Shown here: positions 17,049 to 58,169 of the stretch, one piece after another
Position numbering within the stretch: the stretch's first letter is position 1
Layout of the letters: the number at the start of each line of letters is the position of its first letter
From: a virus
Lineage: Duplodnaviria > Heunggongvirae > Uroviricota > Caudoviricetes
DNA length: 64,000 nucleotides
IMG/VR virus record: IMGVR_UViG_3300020201_000012
Span: 1-64,000 of that record
Reading direction: 5' to 3' (one strand)
Translations under genes and position numbers: made by a program
Notes under the pieces: model-generated
Told to the model about the DNA's origin: nothing
Seen by the model: only the letters and a program-made list of their open reading frames with translations
The model's database searches: none

Positions 17049-17270
17049 ATGATCACTGTTTTCACTACTAAAACCTGCGCTTACTGCAAGATGGTAAAAC
17101 AATATTTAACAATGAGAGGTAAGGAATTTCAAGTAGTGGACCTTGAAGATGAGCCCGAGAAAAGACAAGAACTTTTTGATAAAACCGGTTTCATGACAGT
17201 GCCCATTACTCAGATTGACAACGAGTATATAGTCGGCTGGAACCGTAATAAGTTTGCGGAGGTACTTTAA
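17049..17270 (+). CDS. nrdH: NrdH-like glutaredoxin/redoxin
   Basis: 73 aa with a CAYC redox motif (TKTCAYCKMVK) and the glutaredoxin fold pattern; immediately upstream of the RNR. Confidence 0.65.
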   Translation: MITVFTTKTCAYCKMVKQYLTMRGKEFQVVDLEDEPEKRQELFDKTGFMTVPITQIDNEYIVGWNRNKFAEVL

Positions 17271-20162
17271 ATGAGCGACAAAGAATTAATATCTGAAAGT
17301 TCAAAGTATTTTCAGTCTTCATATCAAGAGATGATTTTTTATCAATTCTATTCCCGTTGGCAACCAGAAATAGGTCGTCGCGAAACATGGGTAGAAGCAA
17401 TAGACCGCTATATGGCTTACATGAAAGTCAAGCTCAACGATAAGCTAACAGAGACCGAATACAGTGAACTTCGCGAAGCTCTACTAAATCAGGAAATCTG
17501 CCCCTCAATGCGTCTTTTATGGTCAGCGGGTAAAGCTTGTGACGCGACTAATGTAACGGCATATAATTGTTTGACTGAAGAGACACCGGTACTCACAAAA
17601 GAACACGGCCTAATAATGCTAAAAGAGGCATACCAACACGGTGAGCTCAACCTCTTAGGTCACGACGGAGAGTGGCACAAGTCTGCTATAAACTATTTCG
17701 GGGAACAAGATGTAGTAGATGTTTTACTCACTAAGGGTAGAAGAAGAAAAATAATATCGGCGACGCTAGATCATAAATGGCTTATTGACAGCAAATTTAA
17801 AACTACAAAAGACCTAATAATCTCTACTAAAAAACAAACTGGCGACAAAATAATACCAGTTTTTGCACCCAAGCCACCTACAGACAATGAAGATTATCGT
17901 TTAGGTATTATGCACGGTATAATTTACGGAGACGGGACAACTACCTATTTCAACGAAAAGAAATTGGGCCATGTGATACGTCTGTGCAAAGATAGTAACG
18001 AATTACTAACCTTGTTTGATGGCTACAAAAGCTCCCAACCGCCCTCATACGGAGGCGATAATGTAGTATACCTTTACGATGAGTGGGCTAAAAACACGGA
18101 CTTAAAAGAGCCCCCTCAAAACGCTTCAAAATCTTACCTACTTGGGTTCATACGTGGCTGGTTTGCGGCAGACGGAACTGTTGGCAAGAATGGGCAGGCA
18201 TCTCTTGCAACACCAGTAGAAGGTCTAGAGTGGTTGCAAAAATACTCCGGGACTGTAGGGCTTCCAACAGGCGGTGTCGATAAGTATTCGGATGAAACAA
18301 ATTACGGACTCAGAAAACAAGACTTATTTAGGGTATACTTTTTTGATTCTGTGCTGTCAAAAGACGACATGTTGCTTTTCGCAAAAAAAGAAAGAGTCAA
18401 AGCAAAAAATAGTGCCTCTAGATATAGCCAGTGGACTGTATCTGACGTATCTAACAAAAGAAAAGAGCCCGTGTATTGTGCAACAGTTCCTGAAACTTCA
18501 ACTTTTGTACTCGATGAGGGTATAGTAACCGGAAACTGTGCTTATGTTGCCCCTATAAACTGGAAAGACCTATCAGAAATAATGTATGTCTCTATGTGCG
18601 GTGCCGGTTGTGGTTTCTCTGTAGAAAAAGAAAACGTATCACAGTTTCCCGTAATTAAAGAACAAACAGGCGAAAAGATAGAAGATATTCTAGTAGACGA
18701 TAGCCGTGATGGTTGGTGTGAAGCCTTTTACCTAGCTTGTGAAGCATGGACTAGTGGTAAAGACGTAGACATAGATTACTCGATGATACGTCCAGCAGGG
18801 GCTCGTCTTGAGACCATGGGCGGTCGTGCTTCTGGCCCCGACCCATTAATTGACCTAATGAAGTTTACCCGTGACAAGATGTTTAATGCTCAGGGTCGTC
18901 GACTTACCCCACTGGAATTACACGACATTATCTGCCAGATCGGTTTGATTGTTGTTGCTGGTGGTGTTCGTCGTTCTGCTCTTATCTCTTTATCCGAGCT
19001 CAAAGACGCAGACATGCGTGACTCAAAAAGCGGTGCTTTCTGGGAAAACAATGGTCAGCGTTCTATGGCTAACAACTCAGCTGTCTATGAATCAAAACCA
19101 TCTGCTGCCGACTTTCTAGAAGAATGGACTGCACTCGTTAAATCAGGTACCGGCGAGCGCGGTATATTTAACAGGGGTGAACTAGTCAATCAAGTACCAG
19201 ATCGTCGTTGGCAAAAAATAAAAGACCAAAAACAAGTCGGTGTAAATCCTTGTGGAGAAATATATTTGCGTTCTAAGCAATTTTGTAATCTTACATCAAT
19301 TGTTGTTCGACCTAAAGACACAATGAAAGACCTAAACCGCAAGATGCGTCTTGCTACGCTACTTGGTACATACCAAGCTACCCTTACTGATTTTGCCTAC
19401 TTAGGTGACGACTGGAAGACCAACTGTAGAGAAGAACAGCTTCTTGGTGTTTCTATCACCGGATACTTCGACAACGAAATTATTCGTAACGACGAGAACC
19501 TTGATGAGCTACGCGAAGAAAGTATCAAGACAAACGAAAAGTATGCAGAGCGTTTTGGTAGTAACCCATCTACTGCAATTACTTGCGTTAAGCCGCACGG
19601 CAACTCAGGGCAGCTTCTAGCTGTTGGTTCGGGTATGCACCCTTGGTTTTCTAAGTACTACATTCGTCGCGTTCGTATCAGCGTTAATGATCCACTTTTA
19701 GCAATGGTTAAAGACCAAGGCATACCGGTTCTACCAGAAGTCGGCTACTCTACTTCTACTGCATCGACTATGGTTATGGAATTTCCTATAAAGGCTCCTG
19801 AAGGTGCTCTGACCAATAAAGACGTAACTGCCATTGAAATGATGACAGAGTGGAAGCGCCTAAAAGAAAGGTTCACTGAACACAACCCTTCGGTAACTAT
19901 TTACGCTAGTGATGACGAGTGGTTAGATATTGCTAACTTTGTTTATAGTAATTGGGATAAAGTTGGCGGTCTGTCGTTTCTACCTAGAAGTGAACACGTT
20001 TACCAGCTTGCACCGTATGAAGAGATAACTGAAGAAGAGTATAACACGCGCAAAGCAGCCTTCACAGATATTGACTTCTCTAAATTGTCTGAATACGAAA
20101 AAAGTGATAACACGCAGGGTGCTAAAGAATTAGCTTGTTCAGGCGGAAACTGCGAAGTTTAA
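17271..20162 (+). CDS. nrdJ: Class II (adenosylcobalamin-type) ribonucleotide reductase NrdJ, interrupted by an intein
   Basis: Extein regions carry RNR-like motifs. A 323-aa insertion has intein hallmarks. The protein is 963 aa in total. Confidence 0.7.
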   Translation: MSDKELISESSKYFQSSYQEMIFYQFYSRWQPEIGRRETWVEAIDRYMAYMKVKLNDKLTETEYSELREALLNQEICPSMRLLWSAGKACDATNVTAYNCLTEETPVLTKEHGLIMLKEAYQHGELNLLGHDGEWHKSAINYFGEQDVVDVLLTKGRRRKIISATLDHKWLIDSKFKTTKDLIISTKKQTGDKIIPVFAPKPPTDNEDYRLGIMHGIIYGDGTTTYFNEKKLGHVIRLCKDSNELLTLFDGYKSSQPPSYGGDNVVYLYDEWAKNTDLKEPPQNASKSYLLGFIRGWFAADGTVGKNGQASLATPVEGLEWLQKYSGTVGLPTGGVDKYSDETNYGLRKQDLFRVYFFDSVLSKDDMLLFAKKERVKAKNSASRYSQWTVSDVSNKRKEPVYCATVPETSTFVLDEGIVTGNCAYVAPINWKDLSEIMYVSMCGAGCGFSVEKENVSQFPVIKEQTGEKIEDILVDDSRDGWCEAFYLACEAWTSGKDVDIDYSMIRPAGARLETMGGRASGPDPLIDLMKFTRDKMFNAQGRRLTPLELHDIICQIGLIVVAGGVRRSALISLSELKDADMRDSKSGAFWENNGQRSMANNSAVYESKPSAADFLEEWTALVKSGTGERGIFNRGELVNQVPDRRWQKIKDQKQVGVNPCGEIYLRSKQFCNLTSIVVRPKDTMKDLNRKMRLATLLGTYQATLTDFAYLGDDWKTNCREEQLLGVSITGYFDNEIIRNDENLDELREESIKTNEKYAERFGSNPSTAITCVKPHGNSGQLLAVGSGMHPWFSKYYIRRVRISVNDPLLAMVKDQGIPVLPEVGYSTSTASTMVMEFPIKAPEGALTNKDVTAIEMMTEWKRLKERFTEHNPSVTIYASDDEWLDIANFVYSNWDKVGGLSFLPRSEHVYQLAPYEEITEEEYNTRKAAFTDIDFSKLSEYEKSDNTQGAKELACSGGNCEV
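17568..18536 (+). mobile_element. Intein with LAGLIDADG homing endonuclease domain inside nrdJ
   Basis: Starts with Cys (CLTEETPVL…). Two LAGLIDADG-type motifs (RLGIMHGIIYGDGT and LLGFIRGWFAADGT). Ends …VTGN followed by a Cys +1 extein residue. Confidence 0.65.
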
Positions 20163-21080: not shown

Positions 21081-21483
21081 TGAGGTGCTCTATCACTTTA
21101 TCTGCGATTTCATCATTCAAGCCTTCATAGAACGTTGTCTTGAAAAAGTTAGGAAATTGTTCATTAAGCATGTCACTATCATCATCTAAGATTGCATATT
21201 TGTTAACTTCAGGGTGTGCATTTAACCATGCTTTAATTTCTTCACCACGAATAGTACCCAGACACGTGGTGACGTCTCAGAGCTCTACGACGCGCTGTGA
21301 GACGTTTTTAAATCCTTCTGGGTCATAGCGCCACGATGAACTCAAAACAACGTCACAGCCCGTAGAGAGCTTTATGCGGGCTATTAAGAGTGCCATGTGA
21401 GGATCTATCGGGTATGGCTCGTGAAAATTGCTTGTACTACGACTGTTCACTACACCATCTATATCGAGAAAAAGTATCTTCAT
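21073..21483 (-). pseudogene. HAD-superfamily phosphatase-like gene (~136 codons) with a single in-frame TGA at 21277-21279
   Basis: The N-terminal 68 aa carry HAD motif I (LFLDIDGVV) and a SSSWR motif. Immediately after the TGA the same frame continues for 67 codons and contains motif IV (AILDDDSD). Either a pseudogene or a readthrough/recoded gene. Confidence 0.45.
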
Positions 21484-24621: not shown

Positions 24622-24692
24622 CATCCATTAGTTCAAGGGCAAGAATACACACCTACAGGTGTACGACAGCGGTTCAACTCCGTTATGGATAG
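24622..24692 (+). tRNA. tRNA-like gene with apparent 8-nt anticodon loop (ACCTACAG)
   Basis: Acceptor (6/7 bp), D-arm and T-arm are all present. The only consistent anticodon stem, TACAC/GTGTA, leaves an 8-nt loop. Confidence 0.35.
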
Positions 24693-25045: not shown

Positions 25046-25121
25046 GGGGGATTCATATAATGTCTTATTATGCTTGCCTTGCACGCAGGTCATCAGAGTT
25101 AGATTCTCTGATCTTCCACCA
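25046..25121 (+). tRNA. tRNA-Ala(UGC)-like (atypical)
   Basis: Acceptor GGGGGAT/ATCTTCC with two G-U pairs, anticodon loop CTTGCAC. Non-canonical D-loop (no GG) and T-loop (TTAGATT). Confidence 0.35.
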
Positions 25122-32425: not shown

Positions 32426-32626
32426 TTATGCCTTTCATTAAGTTATAGCTTAATTATATGTCAGATTAATTTAAAAGTCAATACCTTTTTGCTTGCATTT
32501 TATTTTCTGTGTGGTATAATTAAACTATGAGCAATGTATATTATAGCGAAGAACGTATAACCGACTAATCGGCACTCTTTGTATTTGCTCAAAGTATTTC
32601 GCCGAAAGGCGTTTTTTTAATATATG

Positions 32627-32702
32627 GCCTAGTTGACAAGTGGTTTAAGTCGCTGCCCTTTCAAGGCAGTTATCACGGGTTCAAATCCCGTCTAGGTCAC
32701 CA
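32627..32702 (+). tRNA. tRNA-Glu(UUC)
   Basis: Acceptor GGCCTAG/CTAGGTC, anticodon stem CTGCC/GGCAG, loop CTTTCAA. Confidence 0.65.
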
Positions 32703-32742
32703 TAAGCAGCGTTCGCATAGCGGCTATTGCAGGAGACTGTAC

Positions 32743-32828
32743 GCGGTATTATACATCTAAAGACGATGCCTGGACTGTAAATCCAGTGTCCTCGGACTTA
32801 CTAGGTGCAATACCTAGATACCGCACCA
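32743..32828 (+). tRNA. tRNA-Tyr(GUA)-like gene inside the insertion (partly degenerate)
   Basis: Perfect acceptor GCGGTAT/ATACCGC+ACCA, anticodon stem CTGGA/TCCAG with loop CTGTAAA, and a long variable arm. The T-loop TGCAATA is non-canonical and there are 4 nt between the acceptor and the D-stem. Confidence 0.45.
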
Positions 32829-32865
32829 GAGACTACTAGACTCCTCTTTATGTTATAATTAATTT

Positions 32866-33249
32866 ATGGTAGTAAACACGAACAGGGATCGCGGCAATGC
32901 TGGTCTTGCTCTTGCAATATCATACTATGGGGCGAACGGATACACCGTATCGATACCGCTTAATGATACACAAGATTATGATTTGCTAATAGATAATGGA
33001 GTATCTATATCTAAAGTTCAGGCAAAGTTTTCAAAACAGCGAAGCGAACACGGGGTTCAAAAAGTACCTCTACGCAGTTCAGGCGGAACAAACGGTGGTG
33101 TATACAAGACATTAATTGACACGAATATAGACATTTTATTCTGCTCGAACCCGAATATGGAGATGTGGGCTATACCGAAATCTGAGCTAACACAAAGAAA
33201 TGTTCTCAATCTTGGTGAAAAATATCATAAGTACAAAGTTAACCTGTAA
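32866..33249 (+). CDS. ORF inside the tRNA-Tyr insertion; possible PD-(D/E)XK-type nuclease (homing-endonuclease candidate)
   Basis: 127 aa, preceded by an extended -10 (TGTTATAAT). Segment DYDLLID…SKVQAK gives a weak D…(D/E/Q)xK pattern. Its stop codon TAA (33247-33249) is the A36-A37-A38 of the tRNA-Tyr anticodon loop. Confidence 0.35.
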   Translation: MVVNTNRDRGNAGLALAISYYGANGYTVSIPLNDTQDYDLLIDNGVSISKVQAKFSKQRSEHGVQKVPLRSSGGTNGGVYKTLIDTNIDILFCSNPNMEMWAIPKSELTQRNVLNLGEKYHKYKVNL

Positions 33250-33490
33250 ATCTCCCGCCTTCGGGCATCGTAGGTTCGAGTCCTACACGCTGCACCATAT
33301 AATAATGTACCTCGTTATAATAGATAACACAGACTTTAAGTTGACCATTATGAGGTAGTGTGCTATTATTAGAAAGTCGGGAGGGTAGTTGCTTTGATAT
33401 AGAGAATTCAATTATCAAAGCTGACGTAAAACCTATACAAATTTAGGGGGTAACAAATAGTTCGACAACCTTCGCCACAAAATAAAACAC

Positions 33491-33518
33491 TTGACACGGC
33501 CAGTCAGTGTGGTATAAT
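33491..33518 (+). promoter_or_regulatory. Consensus sigma70 promoter (TTGACA-16-TATAAT)
   Basis: Perfect hexamers. An ATG lies at the predicted transcription start, giving a leaderless 27-codon ORF (33525-33608). Confidence 0.45.
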
Positions 33519-33648
33519 TAACATATGAGAACATCATCACTACATCAACAGCATTTATCTCTACTCAATCAACCGAGTTGTGATTTTAATTGGGGTTATG
33601 GTGTATAAGCGTTCTCTACAAAAATAGAATAAAAACAAAAACGCAAAA

Positions 33649-33685
33649 AGGCACCTAATCTCAAAAAAAAGGTGTCTTTTTCTTT
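33649..33685 (+). terminator. Rho-independent terminator (aggcacct…aggtgtct + T-run)
   Basis: 8-bp stem with one G-U pair, followed by TTTTTCTTT. Confidence 0.45.
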
Positions 33686-33694
33686 AACAATTAT

Positions 33695-34130
33695 AACGGA
33701 AAACCCCGGCTGGAAGAATCGTGGTACTGGGGCAAGAACACAGAGGATATGAGTTTTAGGTGTTCAACAGACGGACGAGGCTAAGGCTCGGTATTCAGTA
33801 ACAAGGAGAGTGAAACTCCTCTACCCTTCGGGGATGAGACTGTGAAACCGAGATGGGTAGCGAGCGGTCTGTAAAGCACTCCACAGTTATGGTGTGCGGT
33901 GTACACTCTTCGGGGCAGCTAGAAGATATGGTTATGTACGGGGCGGTCCGCCTACAGTGCTTGAAAGATAGTAACGGTGCCTGAAAAGTAAGACGATTCG
34001 GCATGTCACATTCACGTAGAGTACCAATAAAAGCTCTACACCGGGTTTTATTCTCGGTACCTAGTAGTATCGGTGAATGGGCGGTACAAAGTAGTTAAAG
34101 TATCTTAAACTATTAAAACCGCCCAGCAAT
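33695..34130 (+). ncRNA. Structured non-coding RNA candidate (~430 nt, class unknown)
   Basis: No ORF longer than 30 codons. GC content locally higher than the surroundings. Many short hairpins capped by UUCG tetraloops (cccTTCGggg, ctcTTCGggg, gcggTCcgcc). A long-range stem GGGCGGT…ACCGCCC. Flanked by a terminator upstream and tRNA-Trp downstream. Confidence 0.35.
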
Positions 34131-34133
34131 TGT

Positions 34134-34208
34134 AGAGAGTTAGTGAAATGGTTATCACAAGAGCTTCCAAACCTCTTATTATCGGTTCGAGTCCGATGCA
34201 CTCTGCCA
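34134..34208 (+). tRNA. tRNA-Trp(CCA)
   Basis: D-stem GTGA/TCAC, anticodon loop TTCCAAA, T-arm ATCGG-TTCGAGT-CCGAT, discriminator G, CCA. One A-A mismatch in the acceptor. Confidence 0.5.
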
Positions 34209-34211
34209 GAT

Positions 34212-34288
34212 GGACTGGTAGCTTAGTGGCTTAAAGCGCCTCCCTGTCACGGAGGAGATCGTGGGTTCAAATCCCATTCAGTCCGCCA
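34212..34288 (+). tRNA. tRNA-Asp(GUC)
   Basis: Anticodon stem CCTCC/GGAGG, loop CTGTCAC. Confidence 0.65.
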
Positions 34289-34294
34289 AAATAA

Positions 34295-34369
34295 TCCTAG
34301 TCGGCCCATCGGTAGGGTACCTCGCTGTTAACGAGTAGGTGGTTGGTTCGATTCCAACACTGGGAGCCA
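34295..34369 (+). tRNA. tRNA-Asn(GUU)
   Basis: Loop CTGTTAA, T-loop TTCGATT. Confidence 0.55.
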
Positions 34370-34374
34370 TACAT

Positions 34375-34450
34375 CAGAGTGTGGGAAAGCGGTTAATCTG
34401 CTCGCCTTGGAAGCGAGAGAACGCTGGTTCAAATCCAGCCGCTCTGACCA
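34375..34450 (+). tRNA. tRNA-Pro(UGG)
   Basis: Anticodon stem CTCGC/GCGAG, loop CTTGGAA. Confidence 0.6.
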
Positions 34451-34526
34451 CGAGAAAAAACAGTGAACTGTACGAGTCGCTCTCATATATACTGGTTGAC
34501 CCTAAAGGTCAGCTTCTCGACCATAA

Positions 34527-34602
34527 TTCTCTCTAGCTCAAAAGCCAGAGCGCCTAGTTGAATCCTAGGAAGTACTCGGAGCGTTACCGAGGGGGGAAAC
34601 CA
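34527..34602 (+). tRNA. tRNA-Phe(GAA) (atypical T-loop)
   Basis: Acceptor TTCTCTC/GGGGGAA (two G-U), D-stem GCTC/GAGC, anticodon stem CCTAG/CTAGG with loop TTGAATC, T-loop AGCGTTA. Confidence 0.45.
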
Positions 34603-34623
34603 AATAAAACTGAAAGGTGAAAT

Positions 34624-34989
34624 ATGGACAACAAAAAGAAGCAGCTAGGTATAGCACCCAGTAATGCTAGAAATTTGTTGATACGAATGATAATATTTGA
34701 CTTTATAAATAAAGACAATATCGTTTGTTACCGATGCTATCTTGAGATGTCTCTAGAAGACTGAAGTATTGAACACAAAATACCCTGGTTACATAGTGAC
34801 AACCCAATAGAACTATATTTTGACCTTAAAAACGTTACTTTCAGTCATCTACGTTGCAATACACTTGCTGCTAGACCCGAAAAAAACAATACTATAAAAC
34901 ATGGTATATCGCGGTACAATAAATATGGTTGTAGGTGCAAAGTTTGCAAAAATACAAAAACAGTATTTAATAAAAAAAGAATAAGATAA
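34624..34989 (+). pseudogene. HNH homing-endonuclease gene with a single in-frame TGA at 34762-34764
   Basis: The 46 codons before the TGA carry CYRC. The 74 in-frame codons after it carry SIEHKIP…N…LRCNTL (HNH core) and C-terminal CRCKVC. Strong RBS aaaggtga. Either a pseudogenised homing endonuclease or a readthrough gene. Confidence 0.45.
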
Positions 34990-35064
34990 GCTGAGTTGGC
35001 TGAGTGGCCTAGGCGCCGGATTGCAAATCCGATTACAAGAGTTCGATTCTCTTACCCAGCTCCA
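34990..35064 (+). tRNA. tRNA-Cys(GCA)
   Basis: Loop TTGCAAA; one acceptor mismatch. Confidence 0.5.
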
Positions 35065-35068
35065 ATAT

Positions 35069-35156
35069 CGCTTCTTGGTGAAACAGTAGACACGATAGCC
35101 TCAAAAGCTATTATCTCGCAAGGGGTGTGTAGGTGCGAATCCTACAGAAGCGACCA
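35069..35156 (+). tRNA. tRNA-Leu(CAA)
   Basis: Anticodon stem ATAGC/GCTAT, loop CTCAAAA, long variable arm. Confidence 0.6.
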
Positions 35157-35189
35157 AACTACACAGTTCAGTGTACTTTAAAAATTTAT

Positions 35190-35274
35190 GCATGAGTGGT
35201 GGAATTGGTATACACGTAGGTTTTAGAAACCTATGCCGAAAGGATTGAGAGTTCAAGTCTCTCCTCATGCACCA
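35190..35274 (+). tRNA. tRNA-Leu(UAG)
   Basis: Acceptor GCATGAG/CTCATGC, anticodon stem TAGGT/ACCTA, loop TTTAGAA, long variable arm. Confidence 0.6.
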
Positions 35275-35277
35275 TAT

Positions 35278-35353
35278 GTATCTATAGCCCAACGGCAGAG
35301 GCGTTCGGTTTAAGCCCGATAAAGTGTAGGTTCGAATCCTACTAGGTACACCA
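35278..35353 (+). tRNA. tRNA with anticodon UAA but a short (5-nt) variable arm (atypical Leu-type)
   Basis: Standard 76-nt layout: acceptor GTATCTA/TAGGTAC, loop TTTAAGC (U33, UAA, G37), T-arm GTAGG-TTCGAAT-CCTAC, discriminator A. Confidence 0.45.
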
Positions 35354-35356
35354 CGT

Positions 35357-35443
35357 GGAAGATGTCCGGTTGGTCGAGGACACCGCCTTGAAAGCGGCTG
35401 GCTGTTATAGGCTCGTAGGTTCGATTCCTATGTCTTCCGCCAA
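35357..35443 (+). tRNA. tRNA-Ser(UGA)
   Basis: Loop CTTGAAA, long variable arm, acceptor GGAAGAT/GTCTTCC. Confidence 0.55.
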
Positions 35444-35479
35444 GAACTTTAAAAAGCATAGATGTGATACAATATATAT

Positions 35480-35944
35480 ATGGAACAAAAATATAACAAC
35501 ACAATAGAGTGGCTTGCTGGGCTGATAGAAGGTGAAGGAAGCTTCATAATTAAAAAAACGGGCGTATCAATAACTTGTCAGATGACAGATGAAGATGTCA
35601 TTAAAAACATAAAGAGTGTATTCGGCGGCGCAGTGTATTTCAACAAAAAAAGAAAAGAGCACTGGAAAGATTCTTGGAAATGGCAGATAAATGGTGAAGA
35701 TGCCTACAATCTGGCCGAACAGTTGAAGCCCCACATGTTCGGAAGAAGAACGCATCAAGTAAACAAATTGCTATATCAATATGAAAATTCGCCTAAAAAG
35801 CTACAACAACATAGAACTTCTAGAACAATACTTAAAGTCAAAGAACTGAGAGAATCTGGGTTATTGCACAGAGAAATAGCAGAAAAGCTAGGTGTTCATA
35901 GAACATTTGTGTCACACATATTGAGAGGAAAATACGGAGCGTGA
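35480..35944 (+). CDS. LAGLIDADG homing endonuclease (single-motif type) with C-terminal HTH
   Basis: LAGLIEGEGSF motif near the N-terminus. Free-standing between tRNA genes. Confidence 0.7.
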   Translation: MEQKYNNTIEWLAGLIEGEGSFIIKKTGVSITCQMTDEDVIKNIKSVFGGAVYFNKKRKEHWKDSWKWQINGEDAYNLAEQLKPHMFGRRTHQVNKLLYQYENSPKKLQQHRTSRTILKVKELRESGLLHREIAEKLGVHRTFVSHILRGKYGA

Positions 35945-35974
35945 AGAAGAAGTAGTCGATTCGCCAGCCTGTGA

Positions 35975-36009
35975 AGCCGGAGTAAGCCAGTGCAAGTCTG
36001 GTCATGCAC
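35975..36009 (+). other. tRNA 3'-end fragment (T-arm plus acceptor 3' strand plus CCA)
   Basis: GCCAG-TGCAAGT-CTGGT then CATGCAC-C-CCA, resembling the 3' end of tRNA-Leu(UAG) at 35250-35274. No matching 5' half was found. Confidence 0.3.
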
Positions 36010-36062
36010 CCCAAATAAAAAAGTACCTAATATAACCATAACTAGGAACTGAAAGGAGACTA

Positions 36063-36116
36063 TATGTCAAGAGACAAAGGGCGCAAAGAAGTCAAGAAGC
36101 CCAAAAAAGCTAAATA
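36063..36116 (+). CDS. 17-aa Lys-rich peptide ORF with a strong RBS
   Basis: gaaaGGAGActat-ATG, encoding MSRDKGRKEVKKPKKAK; lies inside the tRNA array. Confidence 0.2.
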
Positions 36117-36117
36117 A

Positions 36118-36191
36118 TCAGGAGTCATCTAACGGCAGGATGCGAGGTTCTGATCCTCGTCATCTAGGTTCGAATCCTAGCACCTGAGCCA
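36118..36191 (+). tRNA. tRNA-Gln(CUG)
   Basis: Anticodon stem CGAGG/CCTCG, loop TTCTGAT. Confidence 0.55.
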
Positions 36192-36194
36192 TGT

Positions 36195-36284
36195 GGATAG
36201 TTGCCCGAGAGGTTTAAGGGAACGGTTTGCTAAATCGTCGTAGTCGAAAGGCTACCGTAGGTTCGAATCCTACACTCTCCGCCA
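36195..36284 (+). tRNA. tRNA-Ser(GCU)
   Basis: Loop TTGCTAA, long variable arm. Confidence 0.55.
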
Positions 36285-36287
36285 TAA

Positions 36288-36364
36288 TCGTGGGTAGACA
36301 AATAGGTAAAGTCGTCTGCCTTTGAAGCAGAAGTTTGTAGGTTCAAGTCCTACCCCGCGAGCCA
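36288..36364 (+). tRNA. tRNA-Gln(UUG)
   Basis: Anticodon stem TCTGC/GCAGA, loop CTTTGAA, T-loop TTCAAGT. Confidence 0.6.
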
Positions 36365-36378
36365 AATTTATAATATAT

Positions 36379-36747
36379 TCAGCACTCTAGTCTATCTACT
36401 ATAATTCTCAGCCTTACAATTTCTTTCTGAATTTCACTATTATTAGTGCATAATTCATCTGCTAGTGGTGACTGTATTTGCTTTGGTTCAGCATCTGTGG
36501 GCACTGTTATATCCCCTGATAGTGGTGTCAAAACACAATCTAGCCTGTCTGTTAGTTGGTTGATGACTTCGTGTAAATCCGTAATTAATCTTTCTTGTCT
36601 GCTCAACGGAAGTTGACTAGGCGGTTGACCTACCTCGGCTGCATAGCTTGCCTTTTTTGCTGGTTCGTCTGTCTCGTATGCATAATCTGTTGTTAATTCT
36701 GGTCGATATGCTGATACCCCTTCTTCTTCACCTGTAAGTCCGAACAT
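36379..36747 (-). CDS. Hypothetical protein
   Basis: ORF only. Confidence 0.2.
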   Translation of the reverse strand: MFGLTGEEEGVSAYRPELTTDYAYETDEPAKKASYAAEVGQPPSQLPLSRQERLITDLHEVINQLTDRLDCVLTPLSGDITVPTDAEPKQIQSPLADELCTNNSEIQKEIVRLRIIVDRLEC

Positions 36748-36748
36748 A

Positions 36749-36940
36749 TTAATCCTCTATTCTTATTTTAATTTCTGGGTAGTCTGTATCTTCATTCTCT
36801 GTCCATGCATCATACATTGAACTGTCACCCCCACCCTCTAAATAATAACCATGCCATGTGTACATATCATCTTCATTCTCAAACTCAAATACTAATTTAT
36901 ACATTACGAGAATCCTCTTCTTTTTGACATGCTTCGTCAA
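36749..36940 (-). CDS. Hypothetical small protein
   Basis: ORF only. Confidence 0.15.
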   Translation of the reverse strand: MTKHVKKKRILVMYKLVFEFENEDDMYTWHGYYLEGGGDSSMYDAWTENEDTDYPEIKIRIED

Positions 36941-37146
36941 CTGAACCCCAGTCTACTTCTTCGTAGCCCGCCCAGTTATCTACACCTGCACCTTCCAGGG
37001 CATATAGACTTTCTACGGCGCGAAACATACCCATATATTCATCTAGGGTTACTTCTATTATTGGTTGTGGTTTCATTATTGATCCTTTATTACTTATACC
37101 AATAATTATAAACCTTTGTATTTACAGAGTCAAGTACATTTTTTCT

Positions 37147-37174
37147 TTGAAAACAAAAGAATCTGTGGTATAAT
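37147..37174 (+). promoter_or_regulatory. Sigma70-like promoter (TTGAAA-16-TATAAT) placing the start site at the tmRNA 5' end
   Basis: Sequence match only. Confidence 0.4.
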
Positions 37175-37184
37175 TAGTATACAT

Positions 37185-37538
37185 GGGGCTGCCAAGGATT
37201 AGATTGCACGTTGAAAATCAGAAAAGCGAGTAGGTTGCTCACCTTTATAGGGCAAAAGACTTCTAATTGCAAAATTACTAGCATTTGTTAAGGAAAAGAT
37301 TGCTGACTTCGGTCGCGGTTTCAACCTGACACCAGCTTACGCTACGGCTTAAGCCACCCATCGTTCGATAGTAGTAGATCGAAAAGGGTGTTATACACTA
37401 CTGAGTTTTCTTGCCAGTCATAAAGGCAAGTGGTACGGGCGTTAAGATATTAATAGATGTTCTTATCTACAAAAGAACTACACTCGTAGAACACTGACAG
37501 AAGATTAGCAAGACGGGGGTTCGAATCCCCCCGGCTCC
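37185..37538 (+). ncRNA. ssrA: tmRNA (SsrA)
   Basis: 5' GGGGCUG pairs with 3' CGGCUCC. The 3' end GACGGGGGUUCGAAUCCCCCCGGCUCCA is the canonical tmRNA T-arm/acceptor. An internal reading frame ends …P-A-Y-A-T-A-UAA (stop at 37330-37332). Confidence 0.6.
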
Positions 37539-37553
37539 AAGAGTAATTAAGTT

Positions 37554-38066
37554 TTATTGATTATTGTTGGAGCTGTATAAAATATTATACCTGTTAACTA
37601 TCTCTATAGCCCAATTATAGGCATCTTCTGCACACACCCCAGATGGTTGGGGCTTACACCATAACTCTAGGTTTTCTAATCTATTATCATTTCTTATACC
37701 ATTTTTATGGTGAACGTTCTCCCCAGGTAGCAAATATCTGCCTAGAAACGCCTCCATAACAATAACGTGCTCTTGCACGATGTGTCTTTTATTGCGTGGG
37801 TGATTGGGCACATACATCGTGACATAACCACTACTACTGGTGTATTTTTTTGCTATTTTACCCGAAGCTACAGATTTTTTATTACTTTTATTATGACATC
37901 GTATGCACAGACTAGATAATATCTGTTTTTTGCCTTCGCAACCGTTGCATAAATTCCACCTATTATATTGAGCAAACCTACATCTTGGACACAATCTATG
38001 TCTATCGTCTGATCTTAGTGCAGAGTCGCATCTTATGCATGTTTTTGGTATTTTTTTATCTATCAT
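37554..38066 (-). CDS. HNH endonuclease (HNH_3/AP2-type)
   Basis: …HIVQEHVIVMEAFLGR…ENVHHKNGIRNDNRLENLEL… plus N-terminal Cys-rich repeats. Confidence 0.6.
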   Translation of the reverse strand: MIDKKIPKTCIRCDSALRSDDRHRLCPRCRFAQYNRWNLCNGCEGKKQILSSLCIRCHNKSNKKSVASGKIAKKYTSSSGYVTMYVPNHPRNKRHIVQEHVIVMEAFLGRYLLPGENVHHKNGIRNDNRLENLELWCKPQPSGVCAEDAYNWAIEIVNRYNILYSSNNNQ

Positions 38067-52428: not shown

Positions 52429-52652
52429 AATATAACGTAAAATTTTACCTAAATTCAGGGCTTGTGTATGAAATGGAGACAGACGACCATAGGAACTATC
52501 AAAAAATATTAAAGAAAAAGAGTAACGTTCTCCAGATTTTCTCGAAAGAAAACGAAGTTAAATATATCCCAGTCTCTAATATACAACTTCTCGAAGTTAA
52601 AGAGAACGATACGCTTAAAAGAAAAGAAAAACAAAATGAACAATCAAGTTAA
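52425..52652 (+). CDS. Hypothetical small protein
   Basis: ORF only. Confidence 0.2.
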   Translation: MKYNVKFYLNSGLVYEMETDDHRNYQKILKKKSNVLQIFSKENEVKYIPVSNIQLLEVKENDTLKRKEKQNEQSS

Positions 52653-53550
52653 AGTTATAATCACCAGAGGCTTACCCGCTTCTGGTAAAAGCACCTATGC
52701 CCGCGAGTGGGTTTCAGAAGATACTTCTAGTAGGGTTTGTATAGAAAAAGATATAATCAGAAAAAATGCCAGCCTATTTAAGGACGGCGTTTATACGCAT
52801 AAGCGTGGTGATGAATCAATAGTAATAAGAGAAAGAGATAAACTCATAAACCAATCTTTACAAGATGGCAAAAGTGTTATATCATCTGATACTAACCTAT
52901 TGCAGAAACACATTGCACAAATATCTTCTATTGCTAGAAAATATAATGCCGAGATAGAGGTTGTAAGTTTCTTAGACGTACCATTGAAAGAGCTTATTGA
53001 TAGAGATAAGAATAGGCAAAACTCAGTTGGAGAACAAGTGATTCGTAAGATGTTTCACGAACAAGTTAAGAAGATGCCAACCTTCTTGAAGTTTGACCCG
53101 AAGTTGCCAAATTGTGTTATTAGTGATTTGGATGGTACTCTGACCCTTGGCCCAAAAGATCGCTCGCCCTATGAGTGGGCAAAAGTAGGTAATGATGACC
53201 TTAACTTAGGTATATCACATATACTAGACGGCGTCAAAATTATAGACTATGCAAAGATATTTATATTCAGTGGTAGAAACGCTGTATGTCGCCCACAGAC
53301 AGAAGATTGGTTAGAGCGTAATGATATTGAGTATGACTTACTAGCAATGAGGCCACAGTTCTTAGAAGACGGTAAAACAGAAAACAACTTGTCAGATGAG
53401 ATAATTAAAGCCGACATGATTGAAAAACATATTCGCGGGAAATACAACATTCTTCTATGGTTTGATGACAGAATTAGAATTTCTACTATGCTTAGAGACG
53501 TCTACGGAATTAACGTCGCACAGCTTGGGGATACTCGTTTCGAATTTTAA
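52636..53550 (+). CDS. pnkp: Polynucleotide kinase-phosphatase (T4 Pnkp-like)
   Basis: N-terminal P-loop GLPASGKST. C-terminal HAD phosphatase motif ISDLDGTL with later DD motifs. Confidence 0.65.
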   Translation: MNNQVKVIITRGLPASGKSTYAREWVSEDTSSRVCIEKDIIRKNASLFKDGVYTHKRGDESIVIRERDKLINQSLQDGKSVISSDTNLLQKHIAQISSIARKYNAEIEVVSFLDVPLKELIDRDKNRQNSVGEQVIRKMFHEQVKKMPTFLKFDPKLPNCVISDLDGTLTLGPKDRSPYEWAKVGNDDLNLGISHILDGVKIIDYAKIFIFSGRNAVCRPQTEDWLERNDIEYDLLAMRPQFLEDGKTENNLSDEIIKADMIEKHIRGKYNILLWFDDRIRISTMLRDVYGINVAQLGDTRFEF

Positions 53551-54137: not shown

Positions 54138-54442
54138 ATGAAGATATGGCATCGGAAAAAATAGTAATATTTTGGCGTTTTGGGTATTTTAAACTATTTG
54201 ACAGTAGGGGTAACCAGGTAAACGACAGGTTCGTATTAACTGAGGATTATGATTGGGCAAGAATATTTTGGCGCTTCTATTATAGGGAGGCATATTATGA
54301 ATAAAATAACAGTAATTACTTTTGGTATATTTCTATTTGGTATGAATGTATATTTAGCACTAAATTCAAGTCTAGATTGGTGGACCGTGTTAGGCACCTC
54401 GTCTTCCGCTTTTATGGTTGGTTTTGGGTGGGGCAAAAAATA

Positions 54443-56984: not shown

Positions 56985-57222
56985 CAAAACCAACGAAACG
57001 GAAGATTTTCCAGTTACCCTCGCTTTTGGGCAGGGCATTGAAGATATTATAGGTCAAATCACTCTATCTAAAAAAGCACTAGATATAATAAAGGCCGCAC
57101 CGCAAATGTGCGAATTTGCAATAGCATTCACAGGAGACGTTAACCAAGATGGAACATACAGTAACGGAAAGTTGCTTGAAGTTTCGCTAGTAATAAGGAA
57201 AGAACAATGGATAAAGCACTAA
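56977..57222 (+). CDS. Hypothetical protein
   Basis: ORF only. Confidence 0.2.
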   Translation: MDDKTNETEDFPVTLAFGQGIEDIIGQITLSKKALDIIKAAPQMCEFAIAFTGDVNQDGTYSNGKLLEVSLVIRKEQWIKH

Positions 57223-58169
57223 ACATTCAAAAAGAAGTACAACGTATTCTCGGCACCGAAGAGGTATATCTTGTTGGTGGTTCAGTTCGTGACTTAGTTA
57301 TGGGTAATGAACCTAAAGACTATGACTTCACTACCTCAATGCTACCCGAAGAAATGGTAGAGAAAGTTAAGGCTGCCGGTCGTCGTGTTTATACTATCGG
57401 CGAGAAGTTTGGCACTATTGGGTTCAAAGTGCCAGTGGTCGTAGGTTATGAATTAGAAGATACGGAGTCGATTTACGCAGAAGAGGCTAAGTACAAGAAC
57501 ATAGTCGAATATGAGTATGTAGAAGTCACTACGTTCAGAAGCGAAGTTTATACAAGTAAATCACGCAAACCTGAAGTTGAGTTTGTTACGAGTCTAGATG
57601 AAGACCTTAAGCGACGTGACTTTACAATGAATGCTATGGTTCTTAGAAGCGATGGTACTATATACGATCCTTTCGGTGGCAAACTAGATATTCATAAGAA
57701 ACAAATAATCACAGTCGGTATGCCAAAAGATAGGATTCTAGAAGACTCACTTCGTATCCTCCGTGCTGCACGGTTCGCCGCAAGATACAATTTTTCAATC
57801 GACCCTAACTTCATAGGTAAGGCAAGGCAACTAGCAGACCGTATCTTTGATGTATCTGTTGAGAGATGGGTGCAAGAGCTAGATAAACTTCTGGCATCAA
57901 AACACACCTTAAAAGGGCTTGAATCCTTATACGAGATGGGTGTTTTTCAAAGAATATTCCCCGAGATTATATCGGTACCAAATCTGTTGCTGAAGACACC
58001 AGATGTAGATGATGTCTGGAATGACCTACTGCGCAACGTTCATGTACCTGCACAAATTAAAGAACCAACAAGAACAAGAAAGCACATCAACGCTGGCATA
58101 TGTGCAAGATTTAAGTTTAGTAATGATCGATGTGATGTGATACTTGACAAACAAAAGAAAAAGGAGTAA
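57207..58169 (+). CDS. tRNA nucleotidyltransferase (CCA-adding enzyme) / poly(A) polymerase-family head domain
   Basis: LVGGSVRDLVMGNEPKDYDF (GG.VRD…DxD), RRDFTMNAM and DPFGG motifs. Confidence 0.65.
   Translation: MDKALNIQKEVQRILGTEEVYLVGGSVRDLVMGNEPKDYDFTTSMLPEEMVEKVKAAGRRVYTIGEKFGTIGFKVPVVVGYELEDTESIYAEEAKYKNIVEYEYVEVTTFRSEVYTSKSRKPEVEFVTSLDEDLKRRDFTMNAMVLRSDGTIYDPFGGKLDIHKKQIITVGMPKDRILEDSLRILRAARFAARYNFSIDPNFIGKARQLADRIFDVSVERWVQELDKLLASKHTLKGLESLYEMGVFQRIFPEIISVPNLLLKTPDVDDVWNDLLRNVHVPAQIKEPTRTRKHINAGICARFKFSNDRCDVILDKQKKKE

Follow-up and report, generated by a model that had tools for sequence, protein, structure and literature searches.

Does a TGA codon that interrupts the reading frame of an HNH endonuclease gene serve a tailed phage as a site of stop-codon recoding, or has the gene been broken by mutation? 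The question arises from the window analysed here, 64,000 nucleotides of the Caudoviricetes record IMGVR_UViG_3300020201_000012, in which two genes each contain a single in-frame TGA. The original prediction, made from the sequence alone, took the pair as suggestive of low-level programmed readthrough or suppressor-dependent expression and offered pseudogenisation as an equal alternative for the HNH gene. Pseudogenisation is the reading that the evidence favours: the window very probably carries an allele of a free-standing homing endonuclease gene that was broken specifically in this strain, either a null or, at most, a weak leaky hypomorph, and not a recoding device.

The HNH gene occupies positions 34624 to 34989 of the plus strand and comprises 46 codons, the TGA at 34762–34764, 74 further in-frame codons and a terminal TAA at 34987–34989. 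It is preceded by a Shine-Dalgarno-like AAAGGTG at 34613–34619, from which the ATG is separated by 4 nt, in agreement with the ribosome-binding site described earlier. According to translation and the family alignment, the N-terminal 46 codons (34624–34761) contain the first CxxC pair (C35/C38, within the motif CYRC at residues 35–38) and no catalytic residue. The part downstream of the TGA (34765–34989, including the TAA) carries the entire HNH core (E50, H51, N70, H75, C78 and N79) together with the H93/C103/C105/C108 zinc motif, and the SIEHKIP, HLRCN and C-terminal CRCKVC motifs are all located there. Translation thus confirms the predicted order of CYRC, TGA, HNH core and zinc motif, and the predicted hairpin GTCT-CTAGA-AGAC, with a stem of 4 bp, is present at 34749–34761 and directly abuts the TGA on its 5' side. 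A search for an in-frame ATG, GTG or TTG from the TGA to the end of the gene found no restart codon, and the C-terminal part can therefore not be made alone. The gene is free-standing, with its own ribosome-binding site, between tRNA-Phe(GAA) (34527–34602) and tRNA-Cys(GCA) (34990–35064), both on the plus strand and predicted by ARAGORN. The tRNA-Cys gene begins at the base right after the HNH stop codon, and the surrounding cluster comprises 14 tRNA genes from 32626 to 36364 as recognized by ARAGORN.

Judged by their shared homology to phage HNH endonucleases of about 120 aa, both halves of the ORF are a single gene interrupted by one TGA, as the original prediction had proposed. When the stop codon was replaced, the joined sequence matched PHROG 23251 ('HNH endonuclease') with an E value of 2.5e-33 over residues 4–115, across the stop, and in a tblastn search it aligned with 88 phage records, 70 of them over at least 80% of its length. 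These long alignments and the PHROG match place the union of the two halves beyond chance. Assignment to the HNH superfamily is based on this significant profile match and on the presence of the core residues of the beta-beta-alpha-metal fold; the match to Pfam HNH (PF01844) stays below threshold, with 16.2 bits vs a gathering score of 21.4 (E 0.012), and a profile search of PDB sequences with the HNH protein gave no match at E values up to 1. Twelve residues are invariant in an alignment of ten sequences (C35, C38, E50, H51, N70, H75, C78, N79, H93, C103, C105 and C108), and in this alignment all catalytic residues of the family fall downstream of the TGA, with the C35/C38 pair upstream. The column that corresponds to codon 47 is occupied by W, Y, F or L in the more distant homologues.

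The genomic setting of the homologues is informative for the nature of the intact gene. Homologues from six isolates, Pectobacterium phage Arno18, Pseudomonas phage Milchi, Vibrio phage 1.007.O, Escherichia phage radambza, Aeromonas phage 4_4572 and Proteus phage Mydo, were examined, and all are uninterrupted ORFs of about 125–150 aa located in or beside tRNA arrays. The distance from their stop codon to the next tRNA gene is 1–48 nt in all six phages and only 1–8 nt in four of them. Taken together, the tRNA clusters that harbour homologues belong to Ounavirinae, Vequintavirinae, Lahexavirus, a Vibrio phage and a Pseudomonas phage, and the phages with the six homologues are otherwise unrelated to the window phage. 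Such a sporadic spread across unrelated phages at tRNA arrays is typical of a free-standing homing endonuclease. Members of PHROG 23251 (radambza gp51, Mydo gp254, 4_4572 gp033 and Arno18 orf72) are 41–50% identical to the window protein over 87–99% of the length, share with it the invariant CxxC, EH, N, H-x2-CN and H-x9-CxC-x2-C residues, and are likewise positioned immediately upstream of a tRNA gene within a tRNA cluster. They differ in being uninterrupted, whereas the window copy carries W47* and M10I. To our knowledge, none of these four homologues has been characterised biochemically. Klebsiella phage K23PH08C2 was considered as a possible independently split homologue and was dismissed, because the two features under the match merely reflect annotation on the opposite strand.

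The origin of the TGA became apparent from closely related sequences. A protein search retrieved a 121-aa protein that is 98% identical to the joined product and has a tryptophan at the stop position. It is encoded on four metagenome contigs (L001–L004; JGI metagenomes 3300015360 and 3300020192, SRA runs SRR6448207 and SRR6448205), which represent at least two haplotypes and are 99.3–99.8% identical to the window; two of them, L001 (99.28% identity) and L002 (99.78%), are distinct haplotypes, and both have TGG. Over 451 nt, the four contigs differ from the window at just two positions, both of them G>A: at 34653, where ATG>ATA replaces a methionine that is nearly invariant in the family (M10I), and at 34764, where the TGG codon of Trp47 becomes the opal TGA (W47*). 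Both changes in the gene are protein-altering and none is synonymous. By this allele comparison, the HNH TGA is a derived Trp-to-stop mutation private to this strain, accompanied by M10I as a second damaging-looking change. The original prediction had itself named intact variants in related phages among the observations that would speak against it, and L001–L004, with their TGG codons, are such variants. Programmed readthrough at a conserved stop is not supported, given TGG in these contigs and W/Y/F/L in the distant homologues.

Further copies of the TGA allele were not detected. When metagenome contigs were scanned with a pattern that left the variable base open (N), only the known TGG allele was recovered; in IMG/VR, exact patterns for the HNH and HAD TGA sites, likewise with N at the variable bases, had no match, and neither the TGA nor the TGG allele of the HNH gene is present there; and a look-up of the truncated 46-aa and 68-aa products in the gene collection found none on record. 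Among isolates, megablast of positions 34400–35200 against 50,697 phage genomes and tblastn of a 739-aa ORF (75–2294) against isolate phages gave no match, which indicates a phage without a sequenced close relative among isolates.

The second interrupted gene, on which the idea of a common mechanism depended, exists as described: a HAD_SAK_2 phosphatase gene (PF18143; 21073–21483, minus strand) with exactly one in-frame TGA, at 21277–21279, and a preserved downstream frame. Its family has 2,364 homologues at E ≤0.001, and in 26 aligned homologues Leu predominates at the stop column, while a few have F, Y, H or I there. Two near-identical contigs (L005 and L006, >99%) contain an intact 136-aa gene with TTA (Leu) in place of the TGA. 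The HAD stop arose by T>G on the coding strand and the HNH stop by G>A, and the base that follows is A at the HNH stop (TGA-A) and G at the HAD stop (TGA-G). The HAD lesion has a second part 9 nt downstream of the TGA, where ACACCG>ACCACG converts a nearly invariant Pro into Thr. Compared with L005 and L006, three changes are thus clustered within 12 nt (21267–21278), namely TTA>TGA and the swap of adjacent bases, and this clustering suggests one multi-nucleotide event or an assembly artefact and not independent point mutations. The two TGAs thus replaced different ancestral residues (Trp and Leu), and neither is conserved, both being absent from the sister strains.

The odd HAD lesion also bears on the reading that the HNH TGA arose in sequencing or assembly, or reflects a minority variant in a population consensus, and that the real genome has TGG. 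Three changes in 12 nt, including the ACACCG>ACCACG swap, can be an assembly artefact, TGG is found in four out of four related contigs, and the truncated products of 46 and 68 aa have no record in the gene collection. On the other side, single-base substitutions are rare in short-read consensus assemblies. Furthermore, the 45.8 kb of the window that are covered by related contigs contain 132 variant sites (59 synonymous, 48 non-synonymous, 23 intergenic and 2 nonsense), and their normal excess of transitions and synonymous changes identifies the window as a genuine distinct haplotype and not as a noisy copy. We therefore regard an error as very improbable. The two nonsense changes are those in the HNH and HAD genes; both are in the window sequence, and they are the only nonsense differences across the 45.8 kb.

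With respect to recoding, the presence of two window genes that each have one in-frame TGA and a preserved downstream frame was the basis for proposing programmed readthrough or suppressor-dependent expression common to both. This proposal does not hold against the remaining data and appears scarcely credible to us: neither TGA is kept in contigs that are more than 99% identical, the ancestral residues differ, the 3' contexts are unlike each other, no tRNA with a UCA anticodon is encoded in the window, no Rfam element was found at the site, and the hairpin is insignificant, precedes the stop and also occurs in the TGG alleles. The hairpin was evaluated by folding. The 46-nt stretch around it reaches -4.9 kcal/mol (z = +0.42), and 125 of 200 shuffled sequences fold at least as well; its 13 nt are identical in the intact TGG alleles. 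For the 101-nt context of the HNH stop, the fold has z = -1.45, with 15 of 200 shuffles as good. Hairpin-stimulated readthrough was thus rejected, as the fold is not above that of shuffled sequences, the hairpin is 5' of the stop and it is unchanged in the TGG alleles. An Rfam search of the HNH stop site gave no match. Selenocysteine recoding was likewise rejected: the aligned residue is W, Y, F or L, Rfam revealed no SECIS element and the downstream fold is insignificant.

A general reassignment of TGA is not supported either, as the original prediction had already stated for whole-genome codes 4 and 25. TGA terminates 27 of the 81 ORFs of at least 90 aa in the window, and internal TGA is limited to the HNH and HAD genes, so both alternative codes were excluded. 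The UCA anticodon is absent from all 25 tRNAs of the window (24 predicted by ARAGORN and a tRNA-Ala found by Rfam), and a suppressor tRNA encoded in the window was rejected on this basis. That tRNA-Ala(UGC), at 25046–25118, scores 42.8 bits in Rfam and is missed by ARAGORN; conversely, Rfam at its gathering threshold misses the tRNA-Phe at 34527–34602 and a tRNA-Ser at 35357–35442. Another tRNA-like gene, at 24622–24692, has a 6-nt anticodon loop, CTACAG, which does not contain UCA; ARAGORN assigns it a 2-nt anticodon and the label 'tRNA-???', it is absent from the Rfam results, and it may be a decayed or unusual tRNA.

The scan for further split genes joined by a single TGA, which had been proposed along with the prediction, did not yield any. 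Seven same-frame ORF pairs joined by one stop were inspected in the window: one is joined by TGA (10943/11423) and the others by TAA (45479/46166, 54134/54377, 59798/60266, 62420/62957, 17049/17271 and 57207/58179). Five of the downstream ORFs have ATG as their start codon, and the two at 54377 and 60266 have TTG. The products within the pairs are different, for example a glutaredoxin-like protein and ribonucleotide reductase, a nucleotidase-like and another protein, or a CCA-adding enzyme and a small basic protein, and tandem paralogues were also present. The seven pairs read as different proteins and were therefore rejected as split genes in favour of adjoining separate genes. Within one of these pairs, the glutaredoxin-like ORF of 73 aa (17049–17270) precedes the ribonucleotide reductase ORF (17271–20162, 963 aa) in the same frame, and the latter by eye shows an apparent intein-like insertion from about CLTEETPVL... 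to ...GIVTGN, with C following.

A weaker form of recoding deserves separate consideration, in which a tRNA-Trp of the host or the phage decodes the UGA as Trp with low frequency and TGA alleles are tolerated as leaky hypomorphs. The ancestral codon is TGG, and Trp insertion by a near-cognate tRNA-Trp would restore the wild-type protein; in addition, an A follows the HNH stop. UGA is the leakiest of the stop codons, and both nonsense polymorphisms are TGA, with a probability by chance of about 0.06. Based on the codon usage of this genome, nonsense changes account for 3.6–4.7% of random coding substitutions, and 23–26% of random nonsense substitutions produce TGA. Two TGA out of two thus corresponds to p ~0.05–0.07 for a comparison that was chosen post hoc, and just two events are sampled.

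A candidate reader is encoded nearby. The tRNA-Trp(CCA) gene at 34134–34208 (plus strand, ARAGORN), 420 nt upstream of the HNH gene, is the only plausible near-cognate UGA reader among the window tRNAs, and its D stem contains a U11-A24 pair. E. coli tRNA-Trp has U11-G24, and the G24A exchange of the Hirsh mutant suppresses UGA. In the phage tRNA-Trp, the anticodon stem is moreover mismatched at its base (C31-C39). However, its gene, including the U11-A24 pair, is identical in the strains that carry TGG, and no change accompanies the stop. The HAD TGA took the place of Leu and is combined with the loss of a nearly invariant Pro, and the HNH gene also has M10I, so both genes look like products of decay. 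Moreover, the termination of 27 of the 81 long ORFs depends on TGA, and the 101-nt fold provides no stimulatory structure downstream of the stop. Low-level reading by a host or phage tRNA-Trp with tolerated TGA alleles is thus very improbable in our judgement, and we likewise give little credence to the more specific proposal that the phage tRNA-Trp with U11-A24 would decode UGA as Trp at a few percent, with the HNH opal allele being tolerated as a leaky hypomorph. If it were true, low levels of the wild-type nuclease would be produced from the TGA allele and UGA nonsense polymorphisms would persist in the population. Phage Q-beta offers a precedent for leaky UGA reading, by which its coat protein is extended to A1 through Trp insertion, and low-level reading by tRNA-Trp would lengthen the HNH protein in a comparable way. 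In Q-beta, the UGA is fixed, it ends a complete functional protein and the extension is essential, whereas the TGA in the window is private and lies inside the catalytic domain.

We thus return to a strain-specific broken allele as the explanation that best accounts for the data. The intact gene probably encodes a free-standing HNH homing endonuclease of PHROG 23251, a family whose genes reside in tRNA arrays and directly precede a tRNA gene. A single G>A transition has converted the TGG of Trp47 into an opal stop in this strain, and translation would end after a 46-residue fragment, ahead of every catalytic residue. Because the stop precedes all catalytic residues and no restart codon follows, only the 46-residue fragment is expected, which makes the allele a null or, at best, weakly hypomorphic. 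Residual activity would arise at most through the ordinary background leakiness of UGA, in which misreading by tRNA-Trp would restore the wild-type residue. We infer loss of function of the window allele from these features, and it would represent the expected decay of a selfish gene that is dispensable to the phage. In the model of Goddard and Burt, homing endonucleases reportedly pass through a life cycle of invasion, fixation, decay and loss. The degeneration phase of this model includes inactivation in some lineages with intact copies persisting elsewhere; here, one disrupted allele is seen.

The homing activity of the intact protein is inferred by analogy with SegB of phage T4. SegB is a free-standing homing endonuclease of the GIY-YIG family in the T4 tRNA cluster, which in experiments cleaves tRNA-gene sequence in related phages without SegB and drives the inheritance of itself and of neighbouring tRNA genes (PMC2330249). 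SegB may serve as a functional model for the intact HNH allele, as both are free-standing and both are located inside a phage tRNA cluster; as a GIY-YIG enzyme, it has no sequence relationship to the window gene. By this analogy, the intact HNH allele would cut the endonuclease-less tRNA arrays of co-infecting relatives and would be copied into them during repair. Multiple HNH homing endonuclease genes are known from Felix O1-type phages (PMC3185647).

Several further features of the window concern its tRNA arrays. Four endonuclease genes of four families are found within one 5.5-kb tRNA region (32866–38066). Besides the HNH gene, profile matches identified a PDDEXK_5 (PD-(D/E)XK) gene at 32866–33249, a LAGLIDADG + HTH gene at 35480–35944 and an HNH_3 gene at 37554–38066 on the minus strand. 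Between the latter two genes, a hypervariable patch at 36682–36745 distinguishes the window from L001 by about 20 substitutions and 18 indel bases in 65 nt. It coincides with the 5' end of a 122-aa ORF (36379–36747, minus strand), L002 matches the window there, and it looks like a recombination patch.

The PD-(D/E)XK gene is part of a split tRNA-Tyr(GUA), 1.3 kb upstream of the HNH gene (32706–33297), which ARAGORN in intron mode predicts with a 507-nt insert in the anticodon loop. The 5' half (32706–32736) and the 3' half (33244–33297) flank the insert (32737–33243), and CTGTA is repeated at both junctions. The halves pair perfectly, with a 7-bp acceptor stem and a 5-bp anticodon stem, and when joined they form a perfect cloverleaf that over about 50 nt has the same sequence as the uninterrupted tRNA-Tyr genes of nine IMG/VR contigs (L028–L036). 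Inside the insert, a variant tRNA-Tyr-like element with unusual D and T loops is located at 32744–32828, followed by the endonuclease ORF (32866–33249), which matches PF11645 of the I-Ssp6803I family (E 1.8e-14) and whose stop codon falls within the anticodon-loop sequence. Elsewhere, homologues of this ORF are free-standing, beside tRNA-Tyr, tRNA-Ser or tRNA-Leu genes, and in one contig (L013) a similar tRNA-Tyr is positioned upstream of an ORF homologous to the insert endonuclease. An Rfam search of the split gene detected no group I intron at E values up to 10, and no junction register combined a 5' exon ending in U with a final G in the insert. For these two reasons, the split gene is not supported as a classical group I intron. 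The insert would be either a new type of tRNA intervening sequence or a homing cassette whose arrival inactivated the resident gene; the split tRNA-Tyr would either be spliced or repaired, or be dead, its place taken by the tRNA of the cassette.

The window also encodes an RNA ligase (PF09414; 51157–52428), the polynucleotide kinase-phosphatase Pnkp (AAA_33 + HAD_PNKP; 52636–53550) and a CCA-adding tRNA nucleotidyltransferase (PolyA_pol; 57207–58169), which together constitute a T4-like tRNA repair set. This set may bear on anticodon-nuclease defence and, more speculatively, on the split tRNA-Tyr. Between the 3' half of the tRNA-Tyr and the tRNA-Trp gene, 830 nt (33300–34130) are devoid of ORFs. 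A perfect sigma-70 promoter, TTGACA-N17-TATAAT, is present at about 33492–33520, and the part from 33700 to 34130 is GC-richer and structured-looking, with several CUUCGG-type loops. Rfam returned nothing but noise for the 830 nt at E values up to 1, and the segment could be an ncRNA or a decayed gene.

By itself, the HNH finding is a minor one: it records a single decayed allele of a selfish endonuclease gene and disposes of a misleading hint at stop-codon recoding in this phage. The family to which the gene belongs, PHROG 23251, is of wider relevance, since its genes directly precede a tRNA gene in widely differing phages and are therefore candidates, like T4 SegB, for homing endonucleases that target tRNA arrays. 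In the same region, the split tRNA-Tyr looks like a frozen snapshot of endonucleases remodelling phage tRNA arrays.
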